The notes under the pieces were generated by a model. The model did no database searches. It saw only the letters and a list, made by a program, of their open reading frames with translations, and had not been told where the DNA came from. Below are positions 3,265 to 30,200 of a stretch of DNA of 64,000 bases, piece after piece; positions within the stretch are counted from its first letter, which is position 1; each line of letters opens with the position of its first letter. Position numbers and translations under genes: made by a program. Origin of the DNA: Thainema sp. (GTDB lineage Bacteria > Cyanobacteriota > Cyanobacteriia > Phormidesmidales > Phormidesmidaceae); assembly GCA_052168235.1 (NCBI GenBank), contig JBQLZK010000014.1, forward strand, positions 1 through 64,000, in the 5' to 3' direction.

Positions 3265-6200
3265 ATGCCTCGTCGCGACGATATTAAAAAGATTCTGCTC
3301 ATTGGTTCTGGCCCAATTGTGATTGGCCAAGCCTGTGAGTTTGACTATTCCGGCACCCAAGCGTGTAAAGCTTTGCGGGAAGAGGGTTATGAGGTGGTGT
3401 TGGTTAACTCCAACCCAGCTACCATCATGACTGATCCAGAAACGGCTGATCGCACTTACATTGAACCGTTGACGCCAGAACTGGTCGCTAAAGTCATTGA
3501 GAAAGAGCGACCCGACGCCCTACTGCCGACAATGGGGGGACAAACGGCGCTCAACGTCGCGGTGAGCTTGGCAAAATCGGGGGTGCTGGATCAGTACAAC
3601 GTCGATCTGATCGGCGCAAAGTTGCCCGCGATTGAGATGGCCGAAGACCGCAAGCTATTCAAAGAGGCGATGGAGCGGATCGGGGTGAAGGTTTGCCCCT
3701 CCGGTCTAGCGGAAACAATGGACGAGGCAAAGGCGATTGCCGTCCAAATTGGCAGCTATCCGCTGATTATTCGCCCGGCCTACACCTTGGGCGGTTCCGG
3801 CGGCGGCATTGCCTACAACCAGGAAGAATTTGAAGAAATTTCGCAATCCGGCTTAGATGCCAGCCCCGTATCTCAAATTTTGATTGAGCAGTCGCTGCTG
3901 GGCTGGAAAGAATACGAGCTAGAGGTGATGCGCGACCTAGCCGATAACGTGGTGATTATCTGCTCGATTGAAAACGTGGATCCAATGGGGATTCATACGG
4001 GCGACTCCGTCACCGTTGCCCCAGCACAAACGCTGACCGACAAGGAATATCAGCGACTGCGGGACTATTCGATCCGAATTATTCGCGAAATTGGCGTCGA
4101 GACAGGCGGCTCCAACATTCAGTACGCCGTCAATCCGGTCGATGGCGACGTGGTGGTGATCGAAATGAACCCCCGCGTTTCCCGTAGTTCGGCTCTAGCC
4201 TCAAAGGCGACTGGATTCCCGATCGCAAAGTTCGCCGCCAAGCTAGCGGTCGGTTATACCCTGGATGAAATTTCCAACGACATCACCAAGAAGACCCCGG
4301 CTAGCTTCGAACCGACGATTGATTATGTGGTGACCAAGATTCCCCGGTTTGCCTTCGAGAAATTTCCCGGCTCCCAAGCGGTTCTTACCACCCAGATGAA
4401 GTCGGTCGGTGAAGCAATGGCAATTGGCCGCACCTTCCAGGAATCTTTCCAAAAAGCTATGCGCTCTTTGGAAACAGGTCGCTTTGGTTGGGGTTGCGAT
4501 CGCGATGAGAAATTGCCCAGTCTGACCCAGATTCGGGCCAATTTGCGAACACCTAATCCAGAACGGTTACTGACCCTGCGCCACGCCATGCTGATGGGTA
4601 TGTCAGTCGAGGATATCTATGAGCTGACCGGAATTGATCCCTGGTTTCTCGATAAGCTTGAGGACTTGCTGAAAACCGAGAAAGCTCTGAAGCGGATGAA
4701 GCTCCAAGAGATTTCCAAAGACGACATGTACGCCATCAAGCGACAAGGCTTCAGCGATCGTCAAATTGCCTATGCCACCAAGACCACCGAGGACGAAGTG
4801 CGGACGTACCGGAAAGGTCTGGGCGTCATCCCCGCTTACAAAACAGTGGACACCTGCGCGGCGGAGTTTGAAGCCTACACGCCTTACTACTACTCCGCTT
4901 ACGAAGAAGAAACCGAAACGCTGCCCTCTGACAAGCGCAAGGTGATGATTCTGGGCAGTGGTCCCAACCGGATTGGTCAGGGAATCGAGTTTGACTACTG
5001 CTGCTGTCATGCCTCCTACGCGCTCCAGGCGGAAGGGTTTGAGACGATCATGGTCAACTCCAACCCGGAGACGGTTTCCACCGACTACGACACCAGCGAT
5101 CGCCTCTATTTTGAGCCGCTGACCAAAGAAGACGTGCTCAACATCATCGAAGCTGAACAGCCTGAGGGCATCATCATCCAGTTTGGCGGGCAGACGCCGC
5201 TGAAGCTAGCGGTGCCTCTAGAAGAGGCCAAGGCTCCTATCTGGGGCACCTCGCCAGATTCCATCGACACTGCCGAAGACCGAGAGCGATTTGAACAAAT
5301 CCTGCGTAAGCTGGATATTGCTCAGCCGCCCAACGGCATCGCCCGCAGCTATGAAGGAGCGCTCAAGATTGCCCAGAAAATTGGCTATCCGGTGGTTGTA
5401 CGGCCCAGCTACGTCCTTGGCGGACGGGCAATGGAAATCGTCTACTCTGACCAGGATCTAGAGCGCTACATGACCTATGCGGTGCAGGTGGAGCCGGATC
5501 ACCCGATTTTGATTGACAAGTTCCTAGAGAACGCGATCGAGGTCGATGTGGATGCGGTGGCCGATCAAACCGGTCAGGTTGTGATCGGCGGCATCATGGA
5601 GCATATTGAGCAGGCAGGGATTCACTCCGGTGACTCGGCCTGTTCCATCCCCTATATTTCCCTCAGCGATGAGGCATTGGTAAAGATTCGCAAATGGACA
5701 ATTCAACTGGCCGGCGAACTGAAAGTTATCGGTCTGATGAATATTCAGTTTGCGGTACAGGGCGACACAGTCTACATTCTGGAAGCCAATCCCCGTGCGT
5801 CCCGAACGGTGCCGTTTATCTCAAAGGCAATCGGTGTTCCCCTCGCTAAGATAGCTGTGAAAGCAATGGCGGGCGAAACGTTGGCCAGCATGGACTTCAC
5901 CGAAGAAATCATCCCCCATCACATTGCAGTGAAGGAAGCGGTGCTGCCATTTGAGAAGTTCCAGGGTACAGACACGATCCTGGGACCCGAAATGCGCTCC
6001 ACAGGTGAGGTCATGGGCATCGATACCGACTTTGGTAAAGCGTTTGCCAAGGCTGAACTTGCGGCAGGTCAGCGTCTACTGCTGAGCGGTACGGTATTTG
6101 TTTCGATGAATGATCGCGAGAAGCAGGCCGTTGTCCCAGTGGTGAAGGATTTGATCAGCCTAGGCTTTAAGGTGATTGCCACAGCAGGCACTCAGCAAGT

Positions 6201-7582: not shown

Positions 7583-7637
7583 CTCTTTATTTCCCAATTG
7601 AGGTAATGGATCAAACCCACCATGAACTATTAACAAT

Positions 7638-7725
7638 AGACTTTATTGGAAATAAAGTTTTTGGGGTTGGAAATTGTTTTGTAGCGCGGCGGAGCCGCGC
7701 TACAAAACAATTTCCGATAAGGTCT
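7638..7725. mobile_element. 88-bp MITE-like element, copy 2
   Basis: Near identical to 119-206; loop gga. Confidence 0.85.
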
Positions 7726-7738
7726 TATGAACTATAAG

Positions 7739-8956
7739 CTACAAACCTTCCGCAGCATCGGTACCACAGGTCGATCCCGTATGCCGTCCCGCAAAGCGAT
7801 CTTCAATCCAGCCCACAGTGACAATCCCAGATTCATCACGGGCATCATGCCCTACACCAGGCAGACGCATAAATTCCACATTTTCACCTGCCGCACAGCG
7901 CCGTGCCGCCTCGGCTTCATTTAACTCAATTGGAATCAGCGTATCGGCTGTACCGTGGGTAATCAGCAGCGGCACGTTGAGTGGTTCCCGAGGCGTATTT
8001 TGCTCAATGATGGTGCGCCAGGGTTCCGTAGTTAGCGGGTCGGCGCTCAGATACTCGGACGGTTTCAAGAGCGAGCCAATGGTCAAAAAGGCAGCGGGCG
8101 TAGATATACAGGTGGTTGCCATCCGCTCGAACTGATCGCGCTGTTCCGGCTGAATAATGCTGTCCAAGCTGACGTTGGGATAAACGTGACTCCAAGCATA
8201 AAAGGCTTCACTAATCAAAACGCCTCCTCCTTGGTCATCCTTTTTGGCTGCAATGATTCCCGCTAGATTAATAGCGGGTGCCGATGTTGCCGCCGCAACC
8301 AGTTCCAGTTCTGGAGCATACTCTGCGGCAGACTGGGCCGCCCATAGCGCTGCTTGTCCCCCTTGTGATGCACCCCAAACCACAAAACGCTTGCCCGCAT
8401 TGACATCCAACTGCTGAGCAGCTCGCACAGAATCCAAAATCGAGTACGCCGAAACATTGCCAACCAGATAGGGATGAATACCCGGTGTACCCAGCCCCGG
8501 ATAGTCAGTGGCAACGACCACAAAACCCTGATCCACCATCAGATCCACCACGGGCGTTTGTTTATAGGGATCTGCGGTGTGGCTGACTCCGCATTCGGGT
8601 AAGACACCCACTGTGCCGTGTGACCAAGCAATGACTGGACGAAGCGAGTCACTAGGTTCTTGTGGGGCAACCACTGTGCCTGTTACGGCAATAGGTTCCC
8701 CATTCATGCCTGTAGAACGATACATGATGCGCCAAGCCACTGCCCCTTCGGGTAAATCTTCTAGCAGCGGTTCTTGGCGAATGATCGTGCCGGGTTGACC
8801 ATCGGGTAAAGGAGTCGGTGGAGTGTAAAAAGCCGAGGGCTGAATTGGAGTGATCGCTCGCTGAAAGCGCCAGTAGATTGCTCCAGCGCCAATCAGACTG
8901 ACAACGCTACCGACAATTACCCAGCGAATCCACGGTTTCAGAGTGCTCCGACGCAC
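7739..8956 (-). CDS. Secretory lipase family alpha/beta hydrolase
   Basis: N-terminal TM, WSHGTVG, TDYPGLGTPGIHPYL, nucleophile GASQGG, HGTADTL, GVGH. Confidence 0.85.
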   Translation of the reverse strand: MRRSTLKPWIRWVIVGSVVSLIGAGAIYWRFQRAITPIQPSAFYTPPTPLPDGQPGTIIRQEPLLEDLPEGAVAWRIMYRSTGMNGEPIAVTGTVVAPQEPSDSLRPVIAWSHGTVGVLPECGVSHTADPYKQTPVVDLMVDQGFVVVATDYPGLGTPGIHPYLVGNVSAYSILDSVRAAQQLDVNAGKRFVVWGASQGGQAALWAAQSAAEYAPELELVAAATSAPAINLAGIIAAKKDDQGGGVLISEAFYAWSHVYPNVSLDSIIQPEQRDQFERMATTCISTPAAFLTIGSLLKPSEYLSADPLTTEPWRTIIEQNTPREPLNVPLLITHGTADTLIPIELNEAEAARRCAAGENVEFMRLPGVGHDARDESGIVTVGWIEDRFAGRHTGSTCGTDAAEGL

Positions 8957-9032
8957 TGATTAGCCCTCTCTAGTGAAAGTAAATCTCGCCATTAGAACAG
9001 TAGCATCAGATTTTTATTGCTTTGAGTTTAAG

Positions 9033-9704
9033 TTAGACAAAATGGTAAGGCGGCAGTGGCGCACTGACAAATAGTGTCCAGTGGGGAAACTGTTCTTGCC
9101 AGATCTGGCACTGATTTTGGATATCAGCTTCGGCATCGCGGGGCAGCAAGAGGTAAATGCGCTCAATGCCATCCTTGGGTTCGCTGTGCTTCCAATGGGT
9201 ATATAACTTTGCGATCGCATGTTTTAACTCAGCAAGTTCAGCCTGCTGCTGCTGCTGATACTCGGCCTGGGCCTGATATCGCTGCTTCTTGGCTAGGAAA
9301 TAGTCGCGACCCTTGGCCTGATTGGGCAAGGGCGGTTCCGATTGCTCAACCGGAATCAGCTTCAGCAGATACTCGCCCTGATTCGCGAGTTGAGCAAGCT
9401 GTTGATGATAGGACTGCTGGTGTTCTGCCAAATGCTGGAGCAGTCCCTCTTCCGAGTAGAACTGGGTGCCAAACTGGAGCGGCAGCACCGTCACGTGCTG
9501 AAACACCTCTTGTAAAACTCGGTCGTGGGTCAAAACCGCCTGCATGAGCTGCTGATCATCAGTTGCGATCGCATCGTAGTCTACCTCTGGTTCAATCACG
9601 GCGCACAGCCCTTCGTAGTGCATAAACTGCACCTGGGCCTGAATACCGCTCAGCGTCGGCAACAGCGCCTCAGCGGGAACACAAAATCCGTAAACGTAAA
9701 TCAT
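9033..9704 (-). CDS. GvpL/GvpF family gas vesicle protein (GvpW-like)
   Basis: IYVYG, HDRVLQEVF..VTVLPLQFGT, GRDYFLAKK, C-terminal PLPPYHFV. Confidence 0.85.
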   Translation of the reverse strand: MIYVYGFCVPAEALLPTLSGIQAQVQFMHYEGLCAVIEPEVDYDAIATDDQQLMQAVLTHDRVLQEVFQHVTVLPLQFGTQFYSEEGLLQHLAEHQQSYHQQLAQLANQGEYLLKLIPVEQSEPPLPNQAKGRDYFLAKKQRYQAQAEYQQQQQAELAELKHAIAKLYTHWKHSEPKDGIERIYLLLPRDAEADIQNQCQIWQEQFPHWTLFVSAPLPPYHFV

Positions 9705-11521
9705 GGCAATGACTGAACAACAGGTGAATAGGGAGCGAGATGAGATGTGATATAGGAGTCTAGAGCATTAGGCACCAGTTCCAGCGCTAGTTCGAGCTGT
9801 AGCCGTCCCTGTACCACTGGCTTTTCTGTGCCGTCGGTCGCCATCGGCTGCAATCCAATCTCTACACCGTGCAGCCAGCCCTCTAGCTCCGGCGATCGTC
9901 GCTGGAGCTGACGCAACAATTGCTCCTGTAGACTGGCGGCTGTCACCAGATGAGTTGGTAAATGCGGCGACAAATCTGGCTGCTCAAACTGAATCAGAGC
10001 CGCTGAATCCAGCACCACAGCATAGGGATTGAGCCGCGTTCCCGTACTCAAATCACAGGCCCATCGACCTTTAGCCGTGTGAATGGTCAACTGCGATCGC
10101 AGCCGGATGTAGCCCGTTTGCCAAGGCTGCTGGGGCGAAAACGTTTGGGCTTTGACACCTGCCATGAGCCGCGTCGCCCGATAGCTGGCCTGAAGAATAG
10201 ACCATAGAATTCGATAGCCCAGCGATCGCAACCTCAACGGATTAGGTAATGCCGACCAGCCCAAGCTCGTCTGATGCTCATCCCCTGCCCAGCAGGCACA
10301 CTGCACCAGCCAGCGCGGATCAAGCTTCTGATCCGGTTGATCATCGTCCCACGCTTGCCACACCATTTCATGCAGGAACCGCTGCTGGGCAGTGGCCTGC
10401 GCCATCACTTCCGCCCATGCCTCGTTCTGAATGTGAACCTGCACCAATCGCTGGGCATCATCTACACCCGTTTGCCAATTGGGGGACTGCTGCTCTAGCG
10501 GCGTAAATTCCAAACCGTACTGGAGCTGGATCGCTCCAGCTTGCCAACTCTGCTCCGGCAGCAAAAGTTCAATATCCAAACCAGTCAGCAATTCATCCAG
10601 CAGGGGATGGTGGGCCAGTTGCGACTCTAGCTCAAGCTGTAGCCGCTGTACCCAAGTCGGAGTAGCCCCAAACTCCCGATCTTCGACTTGGATCAGCGTT
10701 TGGCTGTCCAACAGGTTGCTGGGCGGACGCTGAGCTACTAAATCAAGTGATTCCTGCTGTGCTCCAACTTCAACCGTCAGCCAAACCGCGAGCCGAATTT
10801 GTCCCACTTGCCAGTCTTGACCCGGTTGAAAGATGCGTGCCTGCACGCCCTCCAAAAGCTGCATCAGCACAGGCGATTGAGCCGCGATGCTCCAAATGAT
10901 CGGGGAGGCCAGCGCGGCCAAAGTGAGATGACAAGGCACAGAGTGCCGACGCTCAGACGGACGCAGCATCGTATCTCGCTGCCACGCCGCTTGCACGTCC
11001 TGAGCTTCGTCGAGTAGGTAAGTGAGTAGGTTTTCCGGCGTCTGTGGCTGATCCTCTGGCCAGCCGCTGTCGGGCGCGAGCAGAGCAGTTAGCACGTCTA
11101 TCAGTTGCCGCGCGGAGGCCGCCAAAGCGGGCACGTCCGACTGAGCGACAAATTGGAACTGGGCATCCTGAAGCCGATTGATAGCGGTAAGCGGCAGACG
11201 CAGAACCACGTGTTCAAGCCCGACCGTGGAGACGGTTGGCGGTGTCGGTGTGGCTAGAGCATGGGCGGGACTGGCAGCGAGCGAATCGGTTGCTGCTAAC
11301 GGTGATGTTGGTAAGGAATTTGCTGCGGCTATAGCCTCGCCTGCCATATCGTCCGGCACGCTGTAATTTGATGCCTGATGCATTTGATGACGATGCAAAA
11401 TGGCCTCCTGCCGTGCCAGATCGCCATTCGTCGTCCCATTCAGCGCGGCATTCACATTTGCACCGATGTTGGCATTGAAATCGGTATTGAAACTGTCTAT
11501 AAGCTGATCCGAGGTGTTCAT
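9701..11521 (-). CDS. Hypothetical protein with four degenerate KGK-like repeats
   Basis: Long ORF; repeated L..G...(F/L).P...WQ.G.I(R/Q)L; overlaps the gvp gene by 4 nt; start probably MNTSDQ. Confidence 0.7.
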   Translation of the reverse strand: MNTSDQLIDSFNTDFNANIGANVNAALNGTTNGDLARQEAILHRHQMHQASNYSVPDDMAGEAIAAANSLPTSPLAATDSLAASPAHALATPTPPTVSTVGLEHVVLRLPLTAINRLQDAQFQFVAQSDVPALAASARQLIDVLTALLAPDSGWPEDQPQTPENLLTYLLDEAQDVQAAWQRDTMLRPSERRHSVPCHLTLAALASPIIWSIAAQSPVLMQLLEGVQARIFQPGQDWQVGQIRLAVWLTVEVGAQQESLDLVAQRPPSNLLDSQTLIQVEDREFGATPTWVQRLQLELESQLAHHPLLDELLTGLDIELLLPEQSWQAGAIQLQYGLEFTPLEQQSPNWQTGVDDAQRLVQVHIQNEAWAEVMAQATAQQRFLHEMVWQAWDDDQPDQKLDPRWLVQCACWAGDEHQTSLGWSALPNPLRLRSLGYRILWSILQASYRATRLMAGVKAQTFSPQQPWQTGYIRLRSQLTIHTAKGRWACDLSTGTRLNPYAVVLDSAALIQFEQPDLSPHLPTHLVTAASLQEQLLRQLQRRSPELEGWLHGVEIGLQPMATDGTEKPVVQGRLQLELALELVPNALDSYITSHLAPYSPVVQSLP

Positions 11522-11761
11522 ACTCCTCAATTTTCCCGCCAGCAACCCCAATCGAACCTGAAAACTTGGTTATTTGGTCGATCTTCTTACCAGCTTACTG
11601 AGGGGAGCCTGATGGATAGTGCGATCGCAATTTATTGCAATGTATGGCGACAATATTCGCGGTTCACGGCATGCACTCAGCCAGTTTTAAGGTCAATCGT
11701 TCACAATTCAGAGGAGATAAAGGGTTATGGAGGTTGCAAAGAAAGCAATTTCAGAAATGGG

Positions 11762-11811
11762 TTGACAATATACAGACCTGTCTACATAATCAAAATAGAC
11801 AGACCGTTCTA
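11762..11811 (+). promoter_or_regulatory. Sigma70-type promoter overlapped by two 16-bp TetR(NemR)-like operators
   Basis: TTGACA(11762)-17 nt-CATAAT(11785); boxes tatacagacctgtcta (11769-11784) and tagacagaccgttcta (11796-11811). Confidence 0.7.
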
Positions 11812-11833
11812 TATAAGTCTGAAAAGAATCATC

Positions 11834-12493
11834 ATGATTGACCTCTACGCCTACGCAACGCCCAATGGCCGCAAGCCTGCCATTCTGCTGGAAGAACTGA
11901 AGCTTCCCTACACCATTCACGAAGTAGACATCACCAAAGGCGAGCAGTTTTCGCCGGAGTTTGTCGCCATTAATCCCAATAGTAAAATTCCCGCCATCCG
12001 CGATCGCGAAACGGATATTACGGTGTTTGAATCCGGTGCGATTCTGATTTACCTAGCTGAGAAAACGGGACAGTTTTTGCCAACTGACATCCGCGATCGC
12101 ACTCGGGTTATTGAATGGCTGATGTTCCAAATGGCCAGCGTCGGGCCGATGTTTGGTCAGCTTGGCCATTTTCGCAATGCGGCACCGGAGCAGATCCCCT
12201 ATGCGATTAACCGCTATGAAACGGAAACCCTTCGTCTGCTGGGCGTTTTAGAGCGCCAGCTAGCGGAGCAGGAGTACATTGCTGGGGACTATTCGATTGC
12301 TGATATGGCCACGTTTCCTTGGGTGGCAGCGGCGAAAACGCCTTATCTGGACATTTCCTTCGACGAGTTTCCCCAGGTACAAGCCTGGATTGAGCGGCTG
12401 AAGGCACGTCCGGCAGTTCAGGTGGGCATGGATATTTTCAAGCCAACGTTTAAGAGTGAGTACGGCACGCTGGCGGATGAAGTCGCGGTTTAG
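11834..12493 (+). CDS. Glutathione S-transferase (YfcG/Nu-class-like)
   Basis: MIDLYAYATPNGRK, INPNSKIPAI, FESGAIL, YSIADMATFPW; start refined from the ORF track. Confidence 0.9.
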   Translation: MIDLYAYATPNGRKPAILLEELKLPYTIHEVDITKGEQFSPEFVAINPNSKIPAIRDRETDITVFESGAILIYLAEKTGQFLPTDIRDRTRVIEWLMFQMASVGPMFGQLGHFRNAAPEQIPYAINRYETETLRLLGVLERQLAEQEYIAGDYSIADMATFPWVAAAKTPYLDISFDEFPQVQAWIERLKARPAVQVGMDIFKPTFKSEYGTLADEVAV

Positions 12494-12515
12494 ATATCAA
12501 ATTGGATGTCAATTG

Positions 12516-12591
12516 GTAGGTTGGCGTCGAGCTTGCGAGACCCAACAACCCTTCATCATCGTTGGGTTTCGCGTTGCTCAACCCAACCTAC
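12516..12591. repeat. GTAG-foot REP doublet (inverted pair)
   Basis: gtaggttggcgtcgag...gttgggtttcgcgttgctcaacccaacctac; right arm is the exact reverse complement of 44498-44528. Confidence 0.75.
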
Positions 12592-12672
12592 ATGGCCTAC
12601 TCACGTAAAAAAGTGCGATCGCAAGTCAGATTGTAAAAAATTCAATTCATTCCTATACAGGAGATTTTTGCC

Positions 12673-13293
12673 ATGATTACGCTCTACGGTCATGAACTAT
12701 CGGGTAACAGCTTCAAAGTGCGTTTGTTTCTGGAACTGCTCGGTTTGGAATATGAATTTAAGCAGGTTGATTTGATGAAAGGTGAACATAAGCAGCCTGC
12801 TTATTTAGCAATTAATCCATTCGGACAAGTGCCTGCCCTAGTCGATGGTGACCTGGTGCTGCAAGATGCCCAAGCGATTCTGGTTTATCTGGCGCGGCAG
12901 TATGGTGGCGATACCTGGTTGCCGATTGAGCCGATTGAGCTGAGCCATGTTGTGCGCTGGCTTTCCACCACGGCGGGCGAAGTGCGGCAAGGCCCAGAGA
13001 ATGCGCGGCTCTATCACCTGTTCGGCTCTAAAGCGATCAACATTGAACGCGCTACCGAAAAATCACACCTGATTTTGCAGCACTTGGACGACCATTTGTG
13101 CGATCGCACTTGGCTGGAGTTTGAGCGACCTACAATTGCCGATATCGCTGTATTCCCCTACGTTGCCCTGGCTCCCGATGGCAAGATTGCACTGGAGCAA
13201 TATCCCAATGTCGTCGCCTGGATTGACCGGATTAAGCAGCTTCCCGGCTTCATCGGTATGCGCGGTATTGAAGTTCCCGCTACGGTGGCGTAA
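12673..13293 (+). CDS. Glutathione S-transferase family protein
   Basis: LSGNSFKVRL, INPFGQVPALVDG, DAQAILVYLA, PTIADIAVFPY. Confidence 0.9.
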   Translation: MITLYGHELSGNSFKVRLFLELLGLEYEFKQVDLMKGEHKQPAYLAINPFGQVPALVDGDLVLQDAQAILVYLARQYGGDTWLPIEPIELSHVVRWLSTTAGEVRQGPENARLYHLFGSKAINIERATEKSHLILQHLDDHLCDRTWLEFERPTIADIAVFPYVALAPDGKIALEQYPNVVAWIDRIKQLPGFIGMRGIEVPATVA

Positions 13294-13308
13294 TGATAGA
13301 GGACTGAA

Positions 13309-13452
13309 GACTGAGTGAGGGGTAGATGGGTGGATGAGTAGATGGGTAGATGATGTGTGGAAGCCAACCCACTCCGTTACCTCATTACCCTCTACAGCCT
13401 CTACAGCCCTTTACAGCCTTTATCCTCACTCCTCACTCCTCACCTCCTCACT
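13309..13452. repeat. Composite short tandem repeat block (8-mer gtagatgg, 9-mer ctctacagc, 7-mer cctcact)
   Basis: Direct reading; same module order as 42091-42251. Confidence 0.75.
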
Positions 13453-13482
13453 GCCCCAACGCTCTCCATAGAGGTACTCATT

Positions 13483-14514
13483 ATGCAATCTAAACAAGGC
13501 TGGACGGCGGATGCATCGCCGTTCCACGTTGGCGAGCGCGAAATCCAGACGCGGATGGGCGTGCGCGACAGGATGGAAAACATCGGTCGCCGCTTCATTC
13601 GTCAGTCTATGCCTGACCAACATCGCCAGTTTTATCAGCAGTTACCGTTTCTGATTCTCGGCAGCTTGGACAATCAGGATCGACCTTGGGCTTCGATTAT
13701 TGCGGGAGAACCGGATTTCATTCAATCGCCAGATGAGGTGACGCTCGTGGTAAATGCTCAACCACTTCCCGGTGATCCGCTGAACGATAATCTGCACGAG
13801 GGTTCTGAGCTGGGGCTGTTGGGAATTGACTTGGCGACTCGACGGCGGAATCGGATGAATGGGCGGGTGATTGGCGTAGATAGGAAAAGTGTAGGAAGTG
13901 CGATCGCACTTCCTACACCTACCTCACATAACAGCTTCACCATCACCGTCACCCAATCCTTCGGCAACTGCCCCCAATTTATCCAAAAGCGACAGCTCCA
14001 CTGGCTACCGGAACGGCTGACAGCTATCCCTTCCAAACCTCAGCGCTATGAGCAGTTCACGCCCGTCATGCGCGAGTTGATGGTTCAGGCCGATGCGTTT
14101 TTTATTGCCACGAGCTACACCAGTCACAATGAGCCGGATCAGAGCGTCAATCAAGGCGTAGATGTGTCCCATCGTGGCGGCAAACCGGGCTTTGTGCGGA
14201 TTGACGATGACCACACGTTTACCTTTCCCGACTTTGCGGGCAACAACTTCTACAGCACAATTGGCAATCTGTTGCTGAATCCAAAGGTTGGCGTGCTGTT
14301 CATCGACTTTGAGCAGGGTCATTTGCTGTCGATTACGGGTCAAGCTGAAATTATTTGGGATCAAGAAGCTGTAGCTACTTACGCTGGAGCCGAGCGACTG
14401 GTGCGGATCACGGTTGATGAAATGGTCTACCTGCCAGATGTTCTGCCTTTCCGCTGGGAATTTGAGGAATATTCGCCCTCGCTTGGTTTCACGGGAGAAT
14501 GGCAGGTAGCCTAA
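13483..14514 (+). CDS. Pyridoxamine 5'-phosphate oxidase-like FMN-binding protein (two PNPOx-like domains)
   Basis: SPFHVGEREIQ, MPDQHRQFY, TRRRNRMNG, FGNCPQFIQKR, DVSHRGGKPGFV, FPDFAGN; RBS gaggt before the ATG. Confidence 0.85.
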   Translation: MQSKQGWTADASPFHVGEREIQTRMGVRDRMENIGRRFIRQSMPDQHRQFYQQLPFLILGSLDNQDRPWASIIAGEPDFIQSPDEVTLVVNAQPLPGDPLNDNLHEGSELGLLGIDLATRRRNRMNGRVIGVDRKSVGSAIALPTPTSHNSFTITVTQSFGNCPQFIQKRQLHWLPERLTAIPSKPQRYEQFTPVMRELMVQADAFFIATSYTSHNEPDQSVNQGVDVSHRGGKPGFVRIDDDHTFTFPDFAGNNFYSTIGNLLLNPKVGVLFIDFEQGHLLSITGQAEIIWDQEAVATYAGAERLVRITVDEMVYLPDVLPFRWEFEEYSPSLGFTGEWQVA

Positions 14515-14533
14515 CCGATAATTATTAACGTTC

Positions 14534-14602
14534 TGTAGGGGCAGGTTTTGCTGACCAATTTTGATTTGGAACCATTACTTATCGGCTAAACCTGCCCCTA
14601 CA
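14534..14602. repeat. GTAG-foot inverted repeat (15-bp arms)
   Basis: tgtaggggcaggttt ... aaacctgcccctaca. Confidence 0.7.
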
Positions 14603-14632
14603 ACTATTTCTATGCACATTAAGGAAAACACC

Positions 14633-15325
14633 ATGAAGCTACATGCCGATTTGAGCCAACGCGCTGTTGTCTTTAGCGAAGATCTGCCCTGGATGGATTC
14701 GCCGATGCCGGGTGTGCAGCGCCGCATGTTGGATCGGGATGGCGAGGAAGTGGCCAGAGCGACATCGCTGGTGCGCTATGCTCCCGGTAGCGAGTTTTCG
14801 CCCCATGTTCACGGTGGCGGTGAGGAGTTTTTCGTGCTCGACGGTGTGTTTTCTGATGAGTATGGCGATTATCCAGCAGGCACCTATGTGCGGAATCCAG
14901 TTGGCTCCAAGCACAGGCCATCGAGTCGGGATGGCTGCACGATTTTGGTAAAGCTGTGGCAGATGCACCCGCAGGATCAGCAGCGGGTAGTGGTGAATAT
15001 GCACCAAGCCCAGTGGTATCCGGGATTGGTAGACGGGCTGCAAGTGTTGCCGCTACACAGTTTTGGCACGGAGAAGGTAGCGCTGGTGCGCTGGGCACCG
15101 GGAACCGAGTTTCAGCGCCATACGCACTACGGCGGCGAGGAGATTTTGGTGCTGGAGGGTGTGTTTGAAGATGAATACGGCAGCTATCCCCAAGGCACTT
15201 GGCTACGAAATCCGCATGGCAGTGTGCATACGCCGTTTAGTCGTGAGGGCTGTTTGATTTACGTGAAAGTGGGGCATTTGGACGTTGGTGTAGAGGCGGA
15301 ACAAGAGCGTTCCGTGAAAGTTTAG
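14633..15325 (+). CDS. ChrR-like tandem cupin protein
   Basis: GVQRRMLDRDGEEVARATSLVRYAPGS, two H.H.GGEE motifs, RNP.GS.H.P. Confidence 0.9.
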   Translation: MKLHADLSQRAVVFSEDLPWMDSPMPGVQRRMLDRDGEEVARATSLVRYAPGSEFSPHVHGGGEEFFVLDGVFSDEYGDYPAGTYVRNPVGSKHRPSSRDGCTILVKLWQMHPQDQQRVVVNMHQAQWYPGLVDGLQVLPLHSFGTEKVALVRWAPGTEFQRHTHYGGEEILVLEGVFEDEYGSYPQGTWLRNPHGSVHTPFSREGCLIYVKVGHLDVGVEAEQERSVKV

Positions 15326-15332
15326 CGGTTCC

Positions 15333-15519
15333 GTAGGGGCGAAAGGCCTTTCGCCCTAGTGCAATATCGACACGAACCACAGCGTCATGAAGAGAGTTAA
15401 GTTTCGTAGGGGCGAAAGGCATTTCGCCCTGTGCGATAGGTCACGGTTGGATTAGAGATTGCACAGGTCGGATGAGATGATTGACGGTGTCTAGAGGGCG
15501 AATGGCCATTCGCCCCTAC
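15333..15519. repeat. Cluster of three GTAG-foot REP hairpins (gtaggggcgaa...ttcgccct)
   Basis: Copies at 15333-15357, 15406-15430 and, inverted, 15495-15519; relatives at 32103 and 48858. Confidence 0.8.
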
Positions 15520-15610
15520 ACATACAAAATTTGATCGCTCGCTTCGCTCGCAGGGGAAAGGGAAAAGAGTTAAGAAGTGCAGAGAGTAAGAGGGTAAAAA
15601 GAGCAAAGCG

Positions 15611-17476
15611 TTACGGAAGAATCCTAGGCAAACGACAGACAACCCGAAAACCAAAAGTGCTGCTGGAAACGCGCGGATCGTCGTAGACGCGATAGGCAGA
15701 GCGACAATGCCCAGGATGGTCGTACCAGGAACCGCCGCGTAAAATCCTGCGATCGCCTTTTCCATCTACGATCCAGGCACTTCCATCTGTCGGTGCATTC
15801 TGATAATTTTGATGAAAATGATCTAAACACCACTCAATAACATTGCCGTGCATATCGAACAAACCAAAGGCATTAGCCGGAAAGCTACCTACTGGAGTCG
15901 TTTGTCTCCGATACTCACCTTTCACGCCGCTACCGTAGGTATAATCGCCGTTGTAATTTGCTAAATCAGTAGAAATCGTTTCACCAAAGTAGAAAGGAGT
16001 TTCAGTTCCGGCTCGGCAGGCATATTCCCATTCCGCTTCGCTGGGTAAACGGTACTCTCGCTTCGTTTGCTGAGACAGCTTCTCGCAAAACTTGACCGCA
16101 TCATGCCAACTGACATTAATCACGGGCTTGTTAGGTGCCACAAACTTAGCATCAGAATGTGTTGCTGGATTTGTACCCATCACTGCCTCGTATTGGGCCT
16201 GTGTCACTGCAAACTTGCCTATATAAAACGCAGAAACATTTACCTGATGCCGAGGTAATTCCCTTGCACAGTACTTTTGATAGTCCTCTTCTGAGATGAG
16301 TTTAAGAATCTCCTGCCTTTCTACCTCCGTCTGCCCCATCCAAAAGCTACCCGCCGGAATCGGCACCATTTCCAGTCCAACACCATTGCCCAATGGCTCA
16401 ACAAACGCCGTGGGCGTCGCCGCTTCCGTCGCAGACGTGTTGATTAATCCAGTCACAGTATCTACAGGAACAACAGATTCAGCCTCTAATGCTGGTGCCG
16501 ATTTGGGTGCTTTCGCCTCACCCTGCAAATCTACCGTTCCAGCCAAACCCGCTGATTGCACATTCATCCGCGCCACTGCAATCCGCTGAAACGCCCCAAT
16601 CGCTTGCGTATCCGTTCCCGATGCCGCCGCATTGACCCGAATCCAGAGCTGTTCAGCCAAATCCCAGTCCCGATCGGCCTCCGCCTGAAACGCATCCACC
16701 TTCAGCGTGGCAATATCCGCATCCGTCGCATAGCGCGGCAGCAAAATCACATGCGCCTTCGTAATCGGTTCCGCAATGATGTACGGCGTTTGCACCACCG
16801 TATCCCCACAATGCTCCCGAATCAGCGTCGGCACCCGCTGCATCAGATAGCGATTCAGTCGCTCCACCGTGGCACAGCGACCATGCCCGCCCAAGCCATC
16901 CAGCAGCGCCGCCGTAAACGCTCCTTGCCCCAAGGCCGGAATTTCATAGGAATACTCATGGGGACTACAGGAAAAAATGCTGATCACACCCGTTTGCCGC
17001 GCAACGGCTTCCGTTTCGCGACCAATACCTTCGCCTGATTTTTTGCGCTGATTGCGGCAAGCATCCAAAATCATCACCACGTTATCGGCACCGCATTCCC
17101 GCAGATAATCCGTAATCACATGGGTCGGAATCGCAGAATTCTCCGGATCTTCTGGGTCACCATCCAGCGGCATCAGATAATCGCGTCCCTCATGACGCAT
17201 CCCGTGCCCACTAAAAAAGAACCAGAAATTATCGCCACTGCTCATGCGGGGCTGATCAAAAATTTCCCGCATCATCCGGAGCAGATTAGTACGGAAAGGA
17301 AAAGTTGACTTGCCATTGACCCGAGGCGAATCCGTCGTAAACAGAAACACCTCATTGAAATTGGCCTCTTGCCGCAAAAACTCAGCCACGGTTTCTGCAT
17401 CCCGCTGGGCATAGCTCAACGGCTGCATAAACTCGTAGTTATTAATGCCAACTGCGATCGCACAATTCTGTGTCAT
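15611..17476 (-). CDS. Caspase-like (C14) peptidase fused to an FGE-sulfatase/CLec domain; probable DGR target
   Basis: AIAVGINNY, FFFSGHG and ILDACR dyad; RLPSEAEWEYACRAGT, NAFGLFDMHGNV.EW, RGGSW...CRSA.R...GFRVV. Confidence 0.9.
   Translation of the reverse strand: MTQNCAIAVGINNYEFMQPLSYAQRDAETVAEFLRQEANFNEVFLFTTDSPRVNGKSTFPFRTNLLRMMREIFDQPRMSSGDNFWFFFSGHGMRHEGRDYLMPLDGDPEDPENSAIPTHVITDYLRECGADNVVMILDACRNQRKKSGEGIGRETEAVARQTGVISIFSCSPHEYSYEIPALGQGAFTAALLDGLGGHGRCATVERLNRYLMQRVPTLIREHCGDTVVQTPYIIAEPITKAHVILLPRYATDADIATLKVDAFQAEADRDWDLAEQLWIRVNAAASGTDTQAIGAFQRIAVARMNVQSAGLAGTVDLQGEAKAPKSAPALEAESVVPVDTVTGLINTSATEAATPTAFVEPLGNGVGLEMVPIPAGSFWMGQTEVERQEILKLISEEDYQKYCARELPRHQVNVSAFYIGKFAVTQAQYEAVMGTNPATHSDAKFVAPNKPVINVSWHDAVKFCEKLSQQTKREYRLPSEAEWEYACRAGTETPFYFGETISTDLANYNGDYTYGSGVKGEYRRQTTPVGSFPANAFGLFDMHGNVIEWCLDHFHQNYQNAPTDGSAWIVDGKGDRRILRGGSWYDHPGHCRSAYRVYDDPRVSSSTFGFRVVCRLPRILP
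15620..15745 (-). other. Candidate DGR variable repeat (VR) and IMH
   Basis: Variable-position codons between RGGSW and GFRVV end in C/T (TAC GAC CAT, CAT, TAT, GTC TAC GAC GAT, CGC GTT TCC AGC AGC ACT TTT), as expected from AAY template codons. Confidence 0.65.
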
Positions 17477-17493
17477 TCATCCCACAACAAACT

Positions 17494-17844
17494 CTATTTT
17501 TCTACGCGCTTAAATTTCAGCGTAATCGCACTCTTTGCTTCCGCGCCAGCCACCAGCTTAATTTCTCCCTTGCCGCTAATCTCAATTGACAATTCCACCT
17601 CATCCAGCTTCATATCCGAATCCATACCGATCTGCTGATCCACCTGCTTGAACAGTCTGCCCACAAACTGCAAAAACCGATTCATATTCGCTTCCAGCAG
17701 ATCTGCCGGAACTCTGGCCACATTTTCCACTCGCCTGCGTACTTCATCGCCCCAACCCCTCGATGTAGGCACCGAAGGCGCATCCACTGATCCCGAATCA
17801 TCGGTCACGATCAAGATGTATTCGTTAGCAGATTCTTCAGGCAT
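17494..17844 (-). CDS. Pepco/Trypco-like peptidase co-occurring small protein
   Basis: LDEVELSIEISGKGEIKLVAGAEAKSAITLKFKR; 17 nt upstream of the caspase gene. Confidence 0.75.
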   Translation of the reverse strand: MPEESANEYILIVTDDSGSVDAPSVPTSRGWGDEVRRRVENVARVPADLLEANMNRFLQFVGRLFKQVDQQIGMDSDMKLDEVELSIEISGKGEIKLVAGAEAKSAITLKFKRVEK

Positions 17845-27245: not shown

Positions 27246-30200
27246 CTAATCGCTCAGCCCCAACTGCTGCTTCAGTGCTTCTGGTACACCAATAGCGCTT
27301 TCTAACCCCTGCACCCCTTCCCAGTTTGTCTGGTCATTCCAAACAATAGTTCCCTCATCGCTGGATAGGATGGCTCCGGTGAAATTAGCGTCGCGGAGAT
27401 TAGTGTCGCGGAGGTCAGCGCTGCTGAGATCGGCAGAGCGGAGGTCGGCGTAGCTGAGATCGGCGTAGCGGAGGTCGGCGTAGCTGAGATCGGCAAAGAT
27501 AAAATTGGTTTTGTTAAGGTTGGCATTGATAAGGTCGGCATTGCTGAGATCAGCAGAGCTGAGATAGACGTTGCTGAGGTTAGCGTAACGAAGTTCAGCA
27601 AAACTGAGTTTGGCTAAGATGAGTTTGGCGTTACTGAGATCAGCAAAGCTGAGATAGACGTTGCTGAGGTTAGCGTAGCTCAGATCGGCATTGCTGAGGT
27701 CGGCGGAGCTGAGTTCAGCGTAGCAGAGGTTGACGGAGTTGAGGAAGAGATAAATGCGGTTTGAAAAAGTATTTAACCCTAAACAATGGCCCATGCCCAT
27801 AAGCCTTAAGAATCGTGAATAATCGCGAGCATGGTCGTTAGGTGATTGACAGGGATGAAAAGGATATCTAGAGGGGTGCAATTTCGTATCTTCTGTCGGC
27901 TGACTCTCTTTTGAGGCAGGTAAACCAAAGCGATGGAGTTCTAGCAACAGAATCATTCCGTTGATGCCCGTGTTCATATCAACTTGGCGCTGTCCCAATC
28001 TCTCTTCTCGATGGGGCATCCGCTCTCGCAGTAGCCGCATTTTCTGTTGGGGTAAATTCTCTGGTGGTGCATCAATAAATTCGCCGTCACTCCAGCGCCA
28101 GTAAAAGTCATAGAGCCGTTTATGGAGTTTTTCTGGCTCAAATTCGGGATGTTTGATAAGCAGAGCGGTCAGATACTCCACAATCTCTGGTGACAGGACG
28201 TGGCAACCCAGCAGGTCATACATCATCCAGCAAAAAGCCGGATCATCAATATCGTACTCACGGTTGCGTCCCGGCTGACAGGCATCAATCAAGCCGTTGA
28301 CAATGCGCTCGGCGCAGAGAAATTCCCCGAAGCTTTTGTGGACAAACTCAATCGAGCCTTCTCCCTGTCGTCCTTGTTGCAGATAAAATGCAGCCAGGGC
28401 GTTGCGTAGGGGAGTGTCATCAGTTTCGAGCCGCTTTTGAGCGGCTTCCAGAAACGCTTTAGCCGAACTGTCCTGCGAAAGTCGGTCTTCAATCGCTTTG
28501 ATGCTGGCAAACTCCATACCCGACTGCACGACGCACAGTCCCGCTTCCTGCAAAATGCGCCTCAGTTGATCTGGCGCAAGTTCGGTAATGTCAAAATTCA
28601 AATTTTGCTCAGCAACTGTGTCGTTGGTCTGATCATCCCGACGATAGCTTTTGGCTCGCTGCTTGGTGAGTACCCAGTCCAGCGTACGTTCGTAAATCAA
28701 TACTTTGGCTTGCGCTCCGTCTGCACCTGCGAACGTCTCTAGCTGTAGTTCGCCATCTCGATACATTGCAGCCAGCAGATAGAGCAGCAGGGGTTCTCGC
28801 GCCAGTTCCCGCACCCGTTCTGGCAAATGCTCGTCCTGTAAAATTGCCATCAGATGAGGCTGGCCTGGCTTGATTAGATTGCCCCAGCGGTCAAACCACT
28901 GCCGCTGTAAGTCATCATCCATCGGCAAAATTTCAAGCCGAGCCAAATTGCTAGGCATCCGACTCTCAATTGATTGCAGGGCCAGCGTCCGCCCAGTAAT
29001 CAGCACGCGATGATTCTTTTCGGAGTTACGCGCACATTGTTCTTGAAACCGTCCCACCTGATCTAAAAAGCTGTCTAGACCTCCGCTGGTGCGGCCTTCC
29101 ATCAGCAGTTCATCAAAACCATCCAGAATAAATAGGAAATTAACGTTGCGATCTGTCAGCCAGCCGGAATCGGTTTTGGCAAAGTCTCGATCTACCGCTT
29201 TGGCCAGGGTTTCCTCAAAGTCTTTCGATAAAACCGCCACATCTCGCAGCCGAATCAATATCGGCGTCCAGCGAGGATGCTCATGGCGACGCACCCAGTC
29301 AGCAAACATCCGACAAAATACACTCTTGCCCCGCCCTGGCCCTCCTTGCACAAACAGGACTCGCTCTTTCTGCTCATCATCATGCAGCATCTGGCGTGCC
29401 CACTGTTCCAGCACCACAGGCTCTTGGGAAGTATCAGCTTCTCCAGCATTGGTGAGGAGCTGCGCCTTCAGCGGCACATAAATATCCTTAAAGGCAAAGG
29501 GTTCTGCAAAGACAGGGTTGAGCGGTTGGGGAGCAATCCATTCCTCTAGATATGTATCGATGCTAAGGTACTTCTCAAAAACCGCATCACCACCTACCTG
29601 ATACCATTCCGCAATACGCTGCACGCTCTTTCCAGCGTCAGCAATGGCATCCCGCAAGTGGCGATTGGTATTTTTGGCGACAATCTCCACAATCTTGACC
29701 GCCATTTCTTTAGATAAACCAAGCTGCACTAATCGAGCGCATAAAGCGCCGTTGAAAGCCACAGCCAACTTTGACTGATGAAAGTGGAGTAGAGCAAAGC
29801 GCGCGGCTTCATCGGATAACTCAAATTCCCCTAAAATTTTGACTTGGGGTGTCGCAATTTTCGCTTGAGGGCTGTTATCTTTGGCGGCAATCCATTGCCG
29901 AAACTCAGGATTTTTGTTGACTATTTGCTTAAAGCTCTCCAAATAAGCAGCCTGGCTAATTAAGGCAACCGTTTGAGATAAGGTGGGTTCTTCCTTGGTT
30001 TTTTCTAAATAGAACTTCAAGAGTCCCGTGGCAATGGACACAAATGGCAGACTCGCACCCACAATTTTGCCTAAAGGCGAATTCAGTGCATCCAGCAGCG
30101 AGTCTAGCTGCTTAATTAGAGGAGCTAATCGCTGCACATTTGGGCCTTCTTTTTGCAGCACTTCGGCCAACCCCAGCACAGCTTCGGCAGCATCTTTGCC

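Follow-up and report, generated by a model that had tools for sequence, protein, structure and literature searches.

A two-gene locus of Thainema sp. pairs a small Pepco protein with a caspase fused to an FGE domain of the C-type-lectin (CLec) fold, and the 3' end of the fusion gene carries the codon signature and the downstream flank of a DGR target, with no reverse transcriptase (RT), Avd or template repeat (TR) found in the window (the whole stretch of DNA analyzed here, 64 kb of contig JBQLZK010000014.1). We consider it probable that this locus is an abortive-infection-like sensor/executioner module, in which a DGR-written sensor is mounted on a caspase and Pepco serves as the pore effector, and in which diversification would proceed in trans if the gene is still diversified.

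Together with the 3' flank, the two genes make up a 2.3-kb locus with the following features.

17494..17844, minus strand: gene for Pepco (116 aa), which comes first in the pair (ORF and Pfam PF24393).
15611..17476, minus strand: caspase-linker-FGE/CLec gene, 621 aa, stop codon included.
16760..17464, minus strand: Peptidase_C14 (orthocaspase) domain, aa 5-239, Pfam E=9.1e-25, holding H91 and C140.
16373..16759, minus strand: linker, aa 240-368, conserved, matching no Pfam family.
15638..16372, minus strand: FGE-sulfatase/C-type-lectin-fold domain, aa 369-613, Pfam E=4.3e-55.
15615..15738, minus strand: variable repeat (VR), with limits set by a profile built on four cyanobacterial TRs.
15656..15724, minus strand: hypervariable codons 585-607, among which P588, C591-R-S-A594, R596 and P601 are fixed.
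15571..15621, minus strand: 3' flank box, which runs from the last codons through the stop into a pyrimidine-rich tract.
15536..15551, minus strand: GC element GCGAGCGAAGCGAGCG, with a T-rich run after it; the element aligns with small hairpins of reference DGR targets.

The Pepco and caspase-FGE open reading frames (ORFs) are spaced by 17 nt, as given by their coordinates, and the neighbors of the pair are a cupin gene and an HlyD/AcrB efflux pair. A promoter and terminator scan detected neither a sigma-70-like promoter nor a terminator on either side of the pair; its two terminator-like sites both lie within the caspase gene. The Rfam and tRNA scans of the 64-kb window were empty. PADLOC recognized the caspase alone in this locus ('caspase' model, E=6.9e-17).

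An intact caspase His/Cys dyad fused to a CLec/FGE domain had been claimed from the letters alone, and both the Pfam domains and the conservation of the dyad bear this out. H91 (in FFFSGHG) and C140 (in LDACR) are unchanged in all 120 aligned homologs, and the stretch around the His aligns with YSGHG of the metacaspase MCA2 (E=0.005), so that Pfam and alignment together place a His-Cys dyad within a C14 fold, as expected of a caspase or orthocaspase. A search with the 621-aa protein returned 7,599 proteins at E<=0.001 among the 8,000 candidates scored, and PF00656 and PF03781 are both present in 120 of 120 relatives among the matches listed. The linker joining these two domains has invariant W278, R280 and V281 among relatives (81 sequences). 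The sequence cluster to which the protein belongs has two members.

The small protein encoded upstream matches PF24393 at E=1e-24 over positions 2-112 of the 112-position profile, with 170 relatives at E<=0.001 among 178 candidates. In an alignment of 110 sequences, all have R or K at position 29, all have W31, and 95% have a basic residue at position 113, giving R/K29-G30-W31 and R113 as the conserved basic sites. Only three residues (VEK) follow the last strand here; the Pepco of Sinorhizobium has a 26-residue tail past the same KR. The locus thus holds the parts of a Pepco module, namely a Pepco protein and an adjacent protease with an intact dyad and a fused FGE sensor. Such modules are further defined by a stable 9-10-mer beta-barrel and by site-specific removal of a C-terminal tail, which licenses toxicity. 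That a Pepco-like protein adjoins a caspase-CLec protein, as the earlier note had it, is therefore correct; its term "small partner" is outdated, since a 2025 preprint reports that Pepco is a pore toxin, a beta-barrel assembled in advance and licensed by the partner protease (PMC12642450). Passages of the same preprint list FGE among the sensors fused to Pepco proteases and cysteine proteases among the partners (PMC12642450). Co-folding of caspase residues 1-250 (80-row alignment) with Pepco (99-row alignment) scored 0.00 in both runs, which were made without controls, and has no weight either way.

The VR was compared with DGRs carried on plasmids. Its region matched eight plasmid records by blastn, and all four that were examined are annotated DGRs with avd and RT, each with two or three VRs and with its TR immediately downstream of the RT gene: Anabaena sp. 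90 pANA02, Acaryochloris marina MBIC10699 pREC1, Microcystis aeruginosa FD4 p1FD4 and Nostoc sp. UHCC 0926 pn2 (L016-L019). These cassettes agree with our locus in VR frame, VR length, positions of the variable codons and 3' flank box. An nhmmer profile of their four TRs matched the VR at E=5e-15, as its sole match in the window, and the VR falls in gap-free codon register with the TRs and VRs of all four. As in other DGR targets, the repeat lies at the 3' end of the gene within a C-terminal CLec/FGE-type fold.

Column entropies reach 3.1-3.6 bits at the hypervariable codons versus <0.6 in the frame. Codons ending in C or T make up 84% of codons 576-613 versus 51% of the whole gene, and adenine content is 12-13% in the last 60-nt windows versus 22-33% upstream. 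Our test set consisted of the 11 codons that read AAY in at least three of the four reference TRs. All 11 are NNY in the window VR, which at the gene-wide C/T frequency of 0.51 has a chance of about 6e-4 by simple arithmetic; their third bases equal those of the Anabaena sp. 90 TR in 11/11, adenine is retained at 9 of their 22 first and second positions, and K, E, Q, M and W are absent. True VRs, used as positive controls, gave NNY at 11/11 and kept adenine at 8-13 of 22, whereas nine non-DGR-like FGE tails, used as negative controls, gave NNY at 6-9 of 11 and a third-base match at 1-4 of 11. The only variable codon not ending in C or T is GGG (589), at which the four TRs read GAA, AGG, AAT or AAA; in an 87%-identical relative (P0002) this position is Met, the sole residue of its variable set requiring NNG. 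NNY or NNG coding at template AAY or A-containing codons, set in a fixed frame, is the pattern of a DGR target. On this sequence evidence, we conclude that the tail of the caspase-FGE protein is a genuine DGR-type variable repeat, and two points first noticed in the letters hold with it: C/T-ending variable codons within a fixed RGGSW/CRSA/GFRVV frame, and a DGR variable-repeat signature in a CLec/FGE fold.

Relatives display the same frame on a changing domain. Among the best 120 tails of a region-restricted protein search, 100 fit the frame pattern, and 77 of these 100 lack K, E, Q, M and W at the 11 positions. P0002 is identical to the window protein at 236 of 240 residues in the caspase, 162 of 202 in the rest of the FGE domain and 9 of 23 at codons 585-607; P0003 is identical at 239 of 240 in the caspase and 125 of 201 in the FGE domain, with E, K and Q present in its tail. 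Outside the VR, the FGE domain is thus unusually divergent on a near-identical caspase chassis (80% identity in P0002, 62% in P0003), so part of the tail divergence could stem from domain exchange and not from retrohoming.

The DNA past the stop codon also resembles that of DGR targets. An nhmmer profile of nine true VR flanks matched the flank box at E=0.0041, as its sole match in the window, and matched none of the nine control loci. The box occurs on every VR examined and is absent from the four reference TRs, and it is kept in the non-coding DNA of loci named Acaryochloris, Anabaena, Nostoc, Microcystis and Calothrix as well as in the window. A target-side cis element 3' of the mutated region, as DGR targets possess, is therefore present in the form of this box, and the pyrimidine tract after the stop, to which the earlier note had drawn attention, proves by profile and alignment to be part of a flank common to cyanobacterial DGR targets.

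The same note had pointed to a GCGAAGC mini-hairpin further downstream, whose reading as a DGR hairpin is not supported. The 36-nt fold of the GC element has -1.1 kcal/mol (z=+1.29), and 187 of 200 shuffled sequences reach an equal or better fold; the phage-type hairpin, as described in passages of PMC3240598, has a 7-10 bp stem and a GRNA loop and lies 4-34 bp from the VR, and the element has no such stem and loop. No canonical GC hairpin was found downstream of the VR, where the 93-nt fold gives z=-0.93. Hairpins are not universal, with 127 of 372 DGRs having one in the figures quoted from PMC5758913. In the minimum-energy fold, CGCTTTGCTC, just past the stop, pairs with GAGCGAAGCG and brackets the tract; we rejected this long-range pairing as an element because it is not significant (z=-0.93). 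Partial analogues of it can be seen by eye in the Acaryochloris and Anabaena flanks, and not in L002, L008 or Nostoc.

The domain has two other readings. The tail could belong to an ordinary non-DGR FGE domain, its C/T-ending codons and variable loops arising from fold preferences and positive selection. The RGGSW, CRSA and GFRVV frame is indeed common to all FGE-sulfatase domains, including PvdO, human FGE and Nostocales paralogs, and many of the residues involved (Y, D, H, S as AGY, F) can be coded as NNY only. However, non-DGR-like tails with the same frame use K, E, Q and M and A/G-ending codons, as seen in the nine controls and likewise in Sinorhizobium, whose caspase-FGE tail contains Q, E and W, and the non-coding flank past our stop codon resembles true DGR targets of other cyanobacterial orders. 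Because this shared flank is non-coding, it is beyond the reach of protein-level selection as an explanation, and we strongly disfavor the ordinary-domain reading as very improbable. We also judge there to be only the slightest chance that the domain is catalytic, performing formylglycine generation or a related oxidase reaction, such that the protein would be a bifunctional enzyme and not a sensor-protease. Relatives are named "SUMF1/EgtB/PvdO family nonheme iron enzyme" in the sources, and NCBIfam gives partial, sub-threshold matches to the PvdO, EgtB, SenA and OvoA models, but all of these scores are far under the curated cut-offs (PvdO, for example, 150 versus 500 bits). In the ymChrsyC stretch of human FGE, whose Cys pair we take to be the catalytic pair, the first Cys aligns with D586 and the second with C591. 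The active-site pair of a catalytic FGE is thus incomplete here, position 586 is hypervariable (3.23 bits), and the would-be site residues are those undergoing randomization. By sequence, the FGE domain matches PvdO (5hha, E=6.2e-34), TvpA (2y3c, E=3.9e-28) and human FGE (about 4e-20) in the PDB. TvpA is a DGR variable protein of Treponema denticola with an FGE-type C-type-lectin fold; its match includes RGGSW...GFR, and its solved chain of 294 residues matches our protein in the lectin domain alone, having no protease or Pepco part. Because the closest solved relatives include such a protein, the FGE/CLec domain is best read, from these comparisons, as a ligand-binding sensor and not as an FGE enzyme.

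A different question is whether the repeat is still being rewritten. Pfam found no RVT or Avd family and no second FGE domain in the window among the 41 ORFs scanned out of 70 of at least 110 aa, the 29 omitted being shorter ORFs that overlap longer ones; repeat finding, blastn (word size 7) and tblastn found no second copy of the repeat anywhere in the window, and searching with the four-TR profile revealed no TR there. RT, Avd and TR are thus absent within 15.6 kb on one side and 46 kb on the other, in agreement with the earlier reading of no local RT or TR, and any ongoing diversification would have to occur in trans, a reading drawn from templates of other genomes. Paralogous VRs, which had been suggested as a further sign, did not appear: the region-restricted search yielded no paralog with the same VR frame among its best 120 matches, the best other match being at most 68% identical over residues 545-621. 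A contig search with 20 contiguous, unchanged bases of the VR frame gave 15 loci, all from other genomes, nine of which form one Nostocales FGE paralog family and were taken as the negative controls. L009 and L011 were discarded as related loci, being unrelated genes that merely encode FGFRVVW, and L002 (a Calothrix MAG) was discarded as a VR/TR pair, because both of its tandem tails are of the VR type, their mismatches fall on all bases and no RT lies within 19 kb.

The lack of RT, Avd and TR in 64 kb, and of a same-frame paralogous VR among the best 120 regional matches, would fit an orphan (fossil) repeat, left by an ancestral DGR or by recombination from a DGR-bearing relative whose matching RT and TR were lost, so that the protein would now be a receptor of fixed specificity on the same Pepco-caspase executioner. 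The downstream GC element without a fold points the same way, as do relatives such as P0003, in which quite different FGE domains sit on Pepco and caspase chassis that are nearly identical, which shows that sensors are exchanged as cassettes. However, NNY coding at the test codons is perfect, with third bases as in a real TR, and the target-type 3' flank is intact, whereas a long-abandoned VR should show third-position and frame changes. Moreover, targets remote from the RT are common in cyanobacteria, accounting for 76 of 121 DGR-diversified genes in a 2020 study (PMC7517822, as given in its passages on these targets). We consider an orphan repeat unlikely, if far from negligible, and prefer a sensor written by a DGR and, if still diversified, served in trans.

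Published work already covers orthocaspase-lectin DGR targets, remote targets and Pepco-protease-FGE modules, to which the locus adds a further example. The cyanobacterial targets of the 2020 study include orthocaspase-CLec proteins and share with our locus a C-terminal CLec/FGE domain with a VR at the 3' end, an orthocaspase-like N terminus, dispersal far from the RT and occurrence in filamentous cyanobacteria (PMC7517822). The passages on these targets make no mention of Pepco, and they assign remote targets by identity to a TR in the same genome, whereas here the comparison is with heterologous templates. The SsPepco-SsAvs4 pair of Streptomyces subrutilus likewise has a small Pepco gene immediately upstream of a sensor-fused protease (Evans et al. 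2025, PMC12642450). In that system, as described in passages of the preprint, the protease is a trypsin-like STAND (Avs4) serine protease that cuts SsPepco after Ile97 and frees a tail of roughly 2 kDa, whereas our locus has a caspase, no NTPase and a sensor with a DGR signature, and its Pepco is missing the roughly 20-residue C-terminal tail of SsPepco. The DGR-diversified putative antigen sensors of multicellular bacteria likewise have VRs of the CLec/FGE type, carried by conflict-system proteins whose effectors are caspases or trypsins and whose adaptors are Trypco proteins, and trans diversification of incomplete loci has been observed (Dore et al. 2024, PMC10907252). These systems differ in phylum and in their STAND or MoxR ternary architectures, and the passages describing them mention Pepco zero times.

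The plasmid DGRs offer a comparison closer to home. In pREC1 and pn2, a small Trypco1 protein is paired with a protease, as Pepco is here, and the Trypco1 of pREC1 is weakly similar to our Pepco (E=4e-4). However, the plasmid cassettes carry avd, RT and TR in cis, none of which is nearby here, and their proteases are trypsin-like VMAP proteins that are distinct from the FGE targets and occur together with MoxR. In our locus, protease and sensor form a single polypeptide with no MoxR, vWA or VMAP nearby, and no MoxR/AAA_5, vWA or VMAP family was found by Pfam among the window ORFs, which sets the locus apart from the VMAP and MoxR-vWA ternary conflict systems. The Pepco plus caspase-FGE pairing was present in both of two further full-length plasmid matches examined, one from Sinorhizobium pSymA and the other, where the copy is truncated, from Nostoc HK-01.

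Taken as a working module, the locus would act as follows. An RT encoded elsewhere would copy a TR and randomize its adenines (AAY to NNY), and the cDNA would replace the VR, whose codons 585-607 would form the binding surface; the target would probably be recognized through the conserved 3' flank box past the stop. Binding of a ligand to the FGE sensor, probably an invader-derived molecule, would activate the caspase. Its substrate would be Pepco, presumably co-transcribed and already assembled as a beta-barrel pro-toxin. If cleavage resembles the published C-terminal case, the cut may fall after R113 (KFKR|VEK), the alternative being the invariant R29|GW. The resulting pore would kill or arrest the cell.

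Beyond what is in print, we tentatively put forward two ideas, which we regard as doubtful though well worth entertaining: that the flank box is a clade-specific target-recognition element, and that Pepco and caspase form a minimal chain from receptor to pore. Roughly 30-50 nt long and starting at the stop codon, the flank box would replace the GC hairpin of phage DGRs in cyanobacterial DGRs and would let one RT/TR serve remote genes. Licensing of a caspase-linked Pepco would involve a cut after a conserved Arg, either R113, freeing three residues, or R29|GW. A death switch that is complete and reprogrammable, and free of any NTPase threshold, would then need only a hypermutable receptor-caspase polypeptide and one pro-pore.

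Should this gene prove to be a live remote target, the cell would possess a receptor of retroelement-rewritable specificity, linked to a pore-forming death effector by one protease only; a path from "anticipatory" diversity to cell suicide could hardly be shorter. The locus would then offer a compact model for what DGR-diversified cytosolic lectins sense.

The locus is a real feature whose parts, codon signature and flank can all be read in the DNA: a Pepco gene lies 17 nt ahead of a gene that fuses a caspase to an FGE domain and ends in a variable repeat (VR).

17494-17844, minus strand: Pepco ORF, 116 aa, matching Pfam PF24393 over the whole profile (E=1e-24)
15611-17476, minus strand: caspase-FGE ORF, 621 aa, Peptidase_C14 and FGE-sulfatase (Pfam)

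In the second ORF, Pfam places Peptidase_C14 at aa 5-239 (E=9.1e-25) and FGE-sulfatase at aa 369-613 (E=4.3e-55). The NCBIfam matches, to models of PvdO, GldK and EgtB type and to "caspase, EACC1-associated type", all stay below threshold. The caspase dyad that an earlier note had called intact is indeed so: all 120 homologues aligned from the matches listed have both H91 (SGHG) and C140 (DACR). The His stretch aligns with metacaspase MCA2. The linker (aa 240-368, window 16373-16759) matches no Pfam family, and its first half is strongly conserved in 81 relatives (consensus ...LAEQLWIRV...; W278, R280 and V281 invariant); possibly it forms a pair of helices for oligomerisation or regulation. 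Judged from its alignments, the FGE domain is most probably a sensor and not an enzyme. Its nearest solved sequences are PvdO (E=6.2e-34), TvpA, a variable protein of a diversity-generating retroelement (DGR; E=3.9e-28), and human FGE (about 4e-20). The two Cys of the human ymChrsyC stretch, which we take to be the catalytic pair, face D586 and C591, respectively, in the alignment, and position 586 is hypervariable (3.23 bits).

Codons in the tail mostly end in C or T, as the earlier note had claimed (84% of codons 576-613 versus 51% over the whole gene), and adenine is down to 12-13%. Blastn of the VR region against PLSDB returned eight records, four of which were examined as references: plasmids pANA02 of Anabaena sp. 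90, pREC1 of Acaryochloris marina MBIC10699, p1FD4 of Microcystis aeruginosa FD4 and pn2 of Nostoc sp. UHCC 0926. All four have an annotated DGR with avd and reverse transcriptase (RT), each with two or three VRs and a template repeat (TR) immediately 3' of the RT, and the window tail from RGGSW to GFRVV has the length and register of these VRs and TRs. At the 11 codons that are AAY in at least three of the four TRs, the window tail reads NNY throughout, codes for K, E, Q, M or W at none, keeps adenine at 9 of 22 first and second positions (8-13 of 22 in true VRs) and shares its third base with the Anabaena sp. 90 TR at 11 of 11; the eight true VRs are each NNY at 11 of 11. Searching genome contigs with an unchanged 20-mer from the GFRVVC frame gave 15 loci, all in other genomes. 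Nine of them, same-frame FGE tails with E/K/M-containing loops (L001, L003, L004, L005, L007, L010, L012, L013, L014), served as controls; they show NNY at 6-9 of 11 codons and matching third bases at 1-4 of 11, and amount to few independent lineages because all belong to one Nostocales family. L008 has NNY at 8 of 11 and L006 at 11 of 11; L002, L015 and the repeat Ana90_VR2 (indel, different register) and L009 and L011 (unrelated genes) were left out of the codon test. In a caspase-FGE of Sinorhizobium pSymA, these loops contain Q, E and W.

The only variable codon not ending in C or T is GGG at 589, where the TRs have GAA, AGG, AAT or AAA. The closest protein relative among the matches listed (P0002) has Met there, and both are compatible with NNG. 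P0002 is identical to the window protein at 236 of 240 caspase residues and 162 of 202 other FGE residues, and at only 9 of 23 in codons 585-607. A four-TR profile matches window 15615-15738 with E=5e-15. On these comparisons of sequence, a DGR origin of the tail is established to the extent that heterologous evidence allows.

In the plasmid references, TR-VR homology stops about 10 nt before the stop codon, VRs within one cassette remain alike for 60-75 nt beyond that end, and a pyrimidine-rich box in this flank is common to different cassettes. The pyrimidine tract and GCGAGCGAAGCGAGCG reported earlier are both present in the window, the tract directly after the caspase-FGE stop and GCGAGCGAAGCGAGCG at 15536-15551; the window box CGCTTTGCTCTTTTTACCCTCTTACTCT is close to CCCTTTACTCTTTTACCCTCTTACCCT of Acaryochloris and CACTATGCGCTTTTGCCCTCTTGCTCT of Anabaena. 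A profile built from nine true VR flanks was searched against 372,212 bases (the window plus reference and comparison loci). Its sole window match is at 15571-15621 (E=0.0041); outside the training set it matches L015 (4.8e-4), L002 (6.5e-4 and 0.84) and L006 (0.083 and 1.3), and none of the nine control loci. The tract is thus common to DGR-type targets as a family, and it tells VR from TR. L002 comes from a Calothrix sp. MO_167.B42 MAG; at ~8850-15850 it has genes for an EAD1-VMAP protein and a MoxR-like AAA ATPase, and a tandem pair of FGE genes with the flank box on both VR-type tails. The larger gene of the pair is broken into two ORFs (10606-12687 and 9976-10584), and the 19 kb covered contain no RT.

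The GC element at 15536-15551 aligns with small hairpins and T-runs of the references (Anabaena CTCGC-ATA-GCGAG, Nostoc GTCGCC-TTAT-GGCGAC). Its halves are direct, not inverted, folding 36 nt gives z=+1.29 (187 of 200 shuffles do as well or better), and it lacks the form of the phage-type DGR hairpin as defined in PMC3240598 (7-10 bp GC stem, GRNA loop, 4-34 bp from the VR). The GCGAAGC mini-hairpin proposed earlier is therefore not supported as a DGR hairpin. Only Nostoc pn2 is clearly structured among the references (z=-4.52; others -1.85, -0.39 and +0.08). The gene can still be a target without such a hairpin, because these repeats were found in only 127 of 372 DGRs (PMC5758913).

The claim that RT and TR are not local agrees with our searches of the window: Pfam on 41 of the 70 ORFs that reach 110 aa found no RT, Avd or second FGE domain, and a repeat search, tblastn, the four-TR profile and blastn at word size 7 found no further copy of the VR. 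The TR regions of the plasmid DGRs are as follows.

L016 (Anabaena), 11147-11300: TR region
L017 (Acaryochloris), 12526-12700: TR region
L018 (Microcystis), 12771-12920: TR region
L019 (Nostoc), 10689-10840: TR region

In three of the four, a common ...TGGC(A/G)GGTGGGA motif comes after the TR, and Acaryochloris has a less exact form of it. The motif is probably part of the TR RNA priming structure; a profile of this post-TR part has no match in the window.

According to a 2025 preprint (PMC12642450), Pepco is a denaturation-resistant 9-10-mer beta-barrel that becomes a pore toxin when an adjoining protease licenses it, cutting after Ile97 to take off a C-terminal tail of ~2 kDa, and it accompanies serine/cysteine proteases fused to sensors "including formylglycine-generating enzymes". 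Named Pepco relatives come from Elainellaceae, Stenomitos, Tildeniella and Phormidesmis, and the barrel-forming C-terminal hairpin is almost invariant in an alignment of 110 cyanobacterial sequences (99 in a second alignment). The window protein has no long tail, only VEK after KFKR. Conserved basic sites are R113 (basic in 95%) and R/K29-G30-W31 (100%, 99% and 100%); since the 26-residue tail of the Sinorhizobium Pepco, next to a caspase-FGE gene, starts after the same KR, R113 ranks first as candidate cleavage site. Pepco adjoins caspase-FGE in both further full-length plasmid matches examined, downstream in Sinorhizobium and, as a truncated remnant, just upstream in Nostoc HK-01. This remnant is an unannotated 72-aa ORF with the C-terminal Pepco part only (L021, Nostoc sp. 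HK-01 plasmid1, 5775-5993; PF24393 E=3.6e-14, profile 74-112), and it shares sequence with the end of a restriction-enzyme homologue encoded on the other strand. Among the proteins matched by the searches, five Pepco/caspase-FGE pairs agree in the length of their longest contig, which is no more than suggestive of pairing.

The neighbourhood has the look of an ordinary cyanobacterial chromosome. Convergent with the pair is a ChrR-type cupin gene, and divergent from it an HlyD/AcrB efflux pair; more distant genes encode carbamoyl-phosphate synthase, transporters and NACHT and NB-ARC proteins, and GCGATCGC has 76 copies in the window versus ~1 expected. Three copies of a GC-rich palindromic element of 25-30 nt with core GGGCGAAAGGCCTTTCGCCC (15328-15357, 15401-15430 and 15487-15516, the third a perfect 10+10 palindrome) fill the space between the cupin and caspase-FGE genes, and no further copies of the core occur in the 64 kb with up to four mismatches; they could form a REP-like terminator array, ~95 nt past the caspase-FGE stop, a proximity to the VR that may or may not matter. 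A dispersed ~103-nt element with a long hairpin core GGAAATTGTTTTGTAGCGCGGC...GCCGCGCTACAAAACAATTTCC (105-207, 7624-7726 and 60444-60546, core also at 56019-56067; 3-4 copies, 86-96% identity) looks MITE-like. Two RTX (HemolysinCabind) repeat proteins (50729-51874 and 52527-54245, plus strand) contain repeated 300-nt blocks, 65-72% identical. Two more proteins are STAND-type, neither recognised by PADLOC; the pentapeptide repeats of one are encoded by a 15-nt periodic repeat at 27350-27773.

27246-30272, minus strand: NNH3, NACHT and pentapeptide repeats, 1,008 aa
48939-50381, minus strand: NB-ARC/AAA_16 protein, 480 aa

The available texts already describe orthocaspase-CLec DGR targets and remote targets in cyanobacteria (PMC7517822), DGR-diversified conflict-system sensors with Trypco and protease partners (PMC7159879, PMC10907252) and Pepco-protease-FGE modules (PMC12642450). 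The literature covered on Pepco, caspase and DGR, with the preprint supplements and Nicastro et al. 2023 outside its scope, holds no paper on Pepco plus caspase-FGE as a DGR target in particular, and the flank box and a caspase-type licensing of Pepco have a modest chance of being new. In contrast to the plasmid DGR cassettes, this locus fuses protease and sensor in one polypeptide and has no MoxR, vWA or VMAP, and RT and TR are both absent in cis.

It seems that the executioner chassis stays fixed and that the sensor domain on it is exchanged as a cassette. A Pepco relative (P0121), on a contig equal in length to that of P0003, is 97% identical to the window Pepco, and FGE identity falls to 80% in P0002 and 62% (125 of 201) in a second relative, P0003, despite near-identical caspases (239 of 240 in P0003). 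The P0003 chassis with its divergent FGE suggests that sensors are swapped whole, and its tail is not DGR-like, containing E, K and Q. This favours the main rival explanation, an orphan VR on a cassette-exchanged sensor, which we nevertheless regard as rather unlikely. We prefer diversification in trans, in which a DGR that lies elsewhere in the genome, or was once present, would rewrite codons 585-607 of the lectin surface through a live TR and RT that we infer, with the flank box marking the caspase-FGE gene as recipient. A putative ligand bound by the variable surface would then switch on the fused caspase, and after this presumed activation step the caspase would trim Pepco at a candidate cleavage site, whereupon the barrel may permeabilise the membrane.
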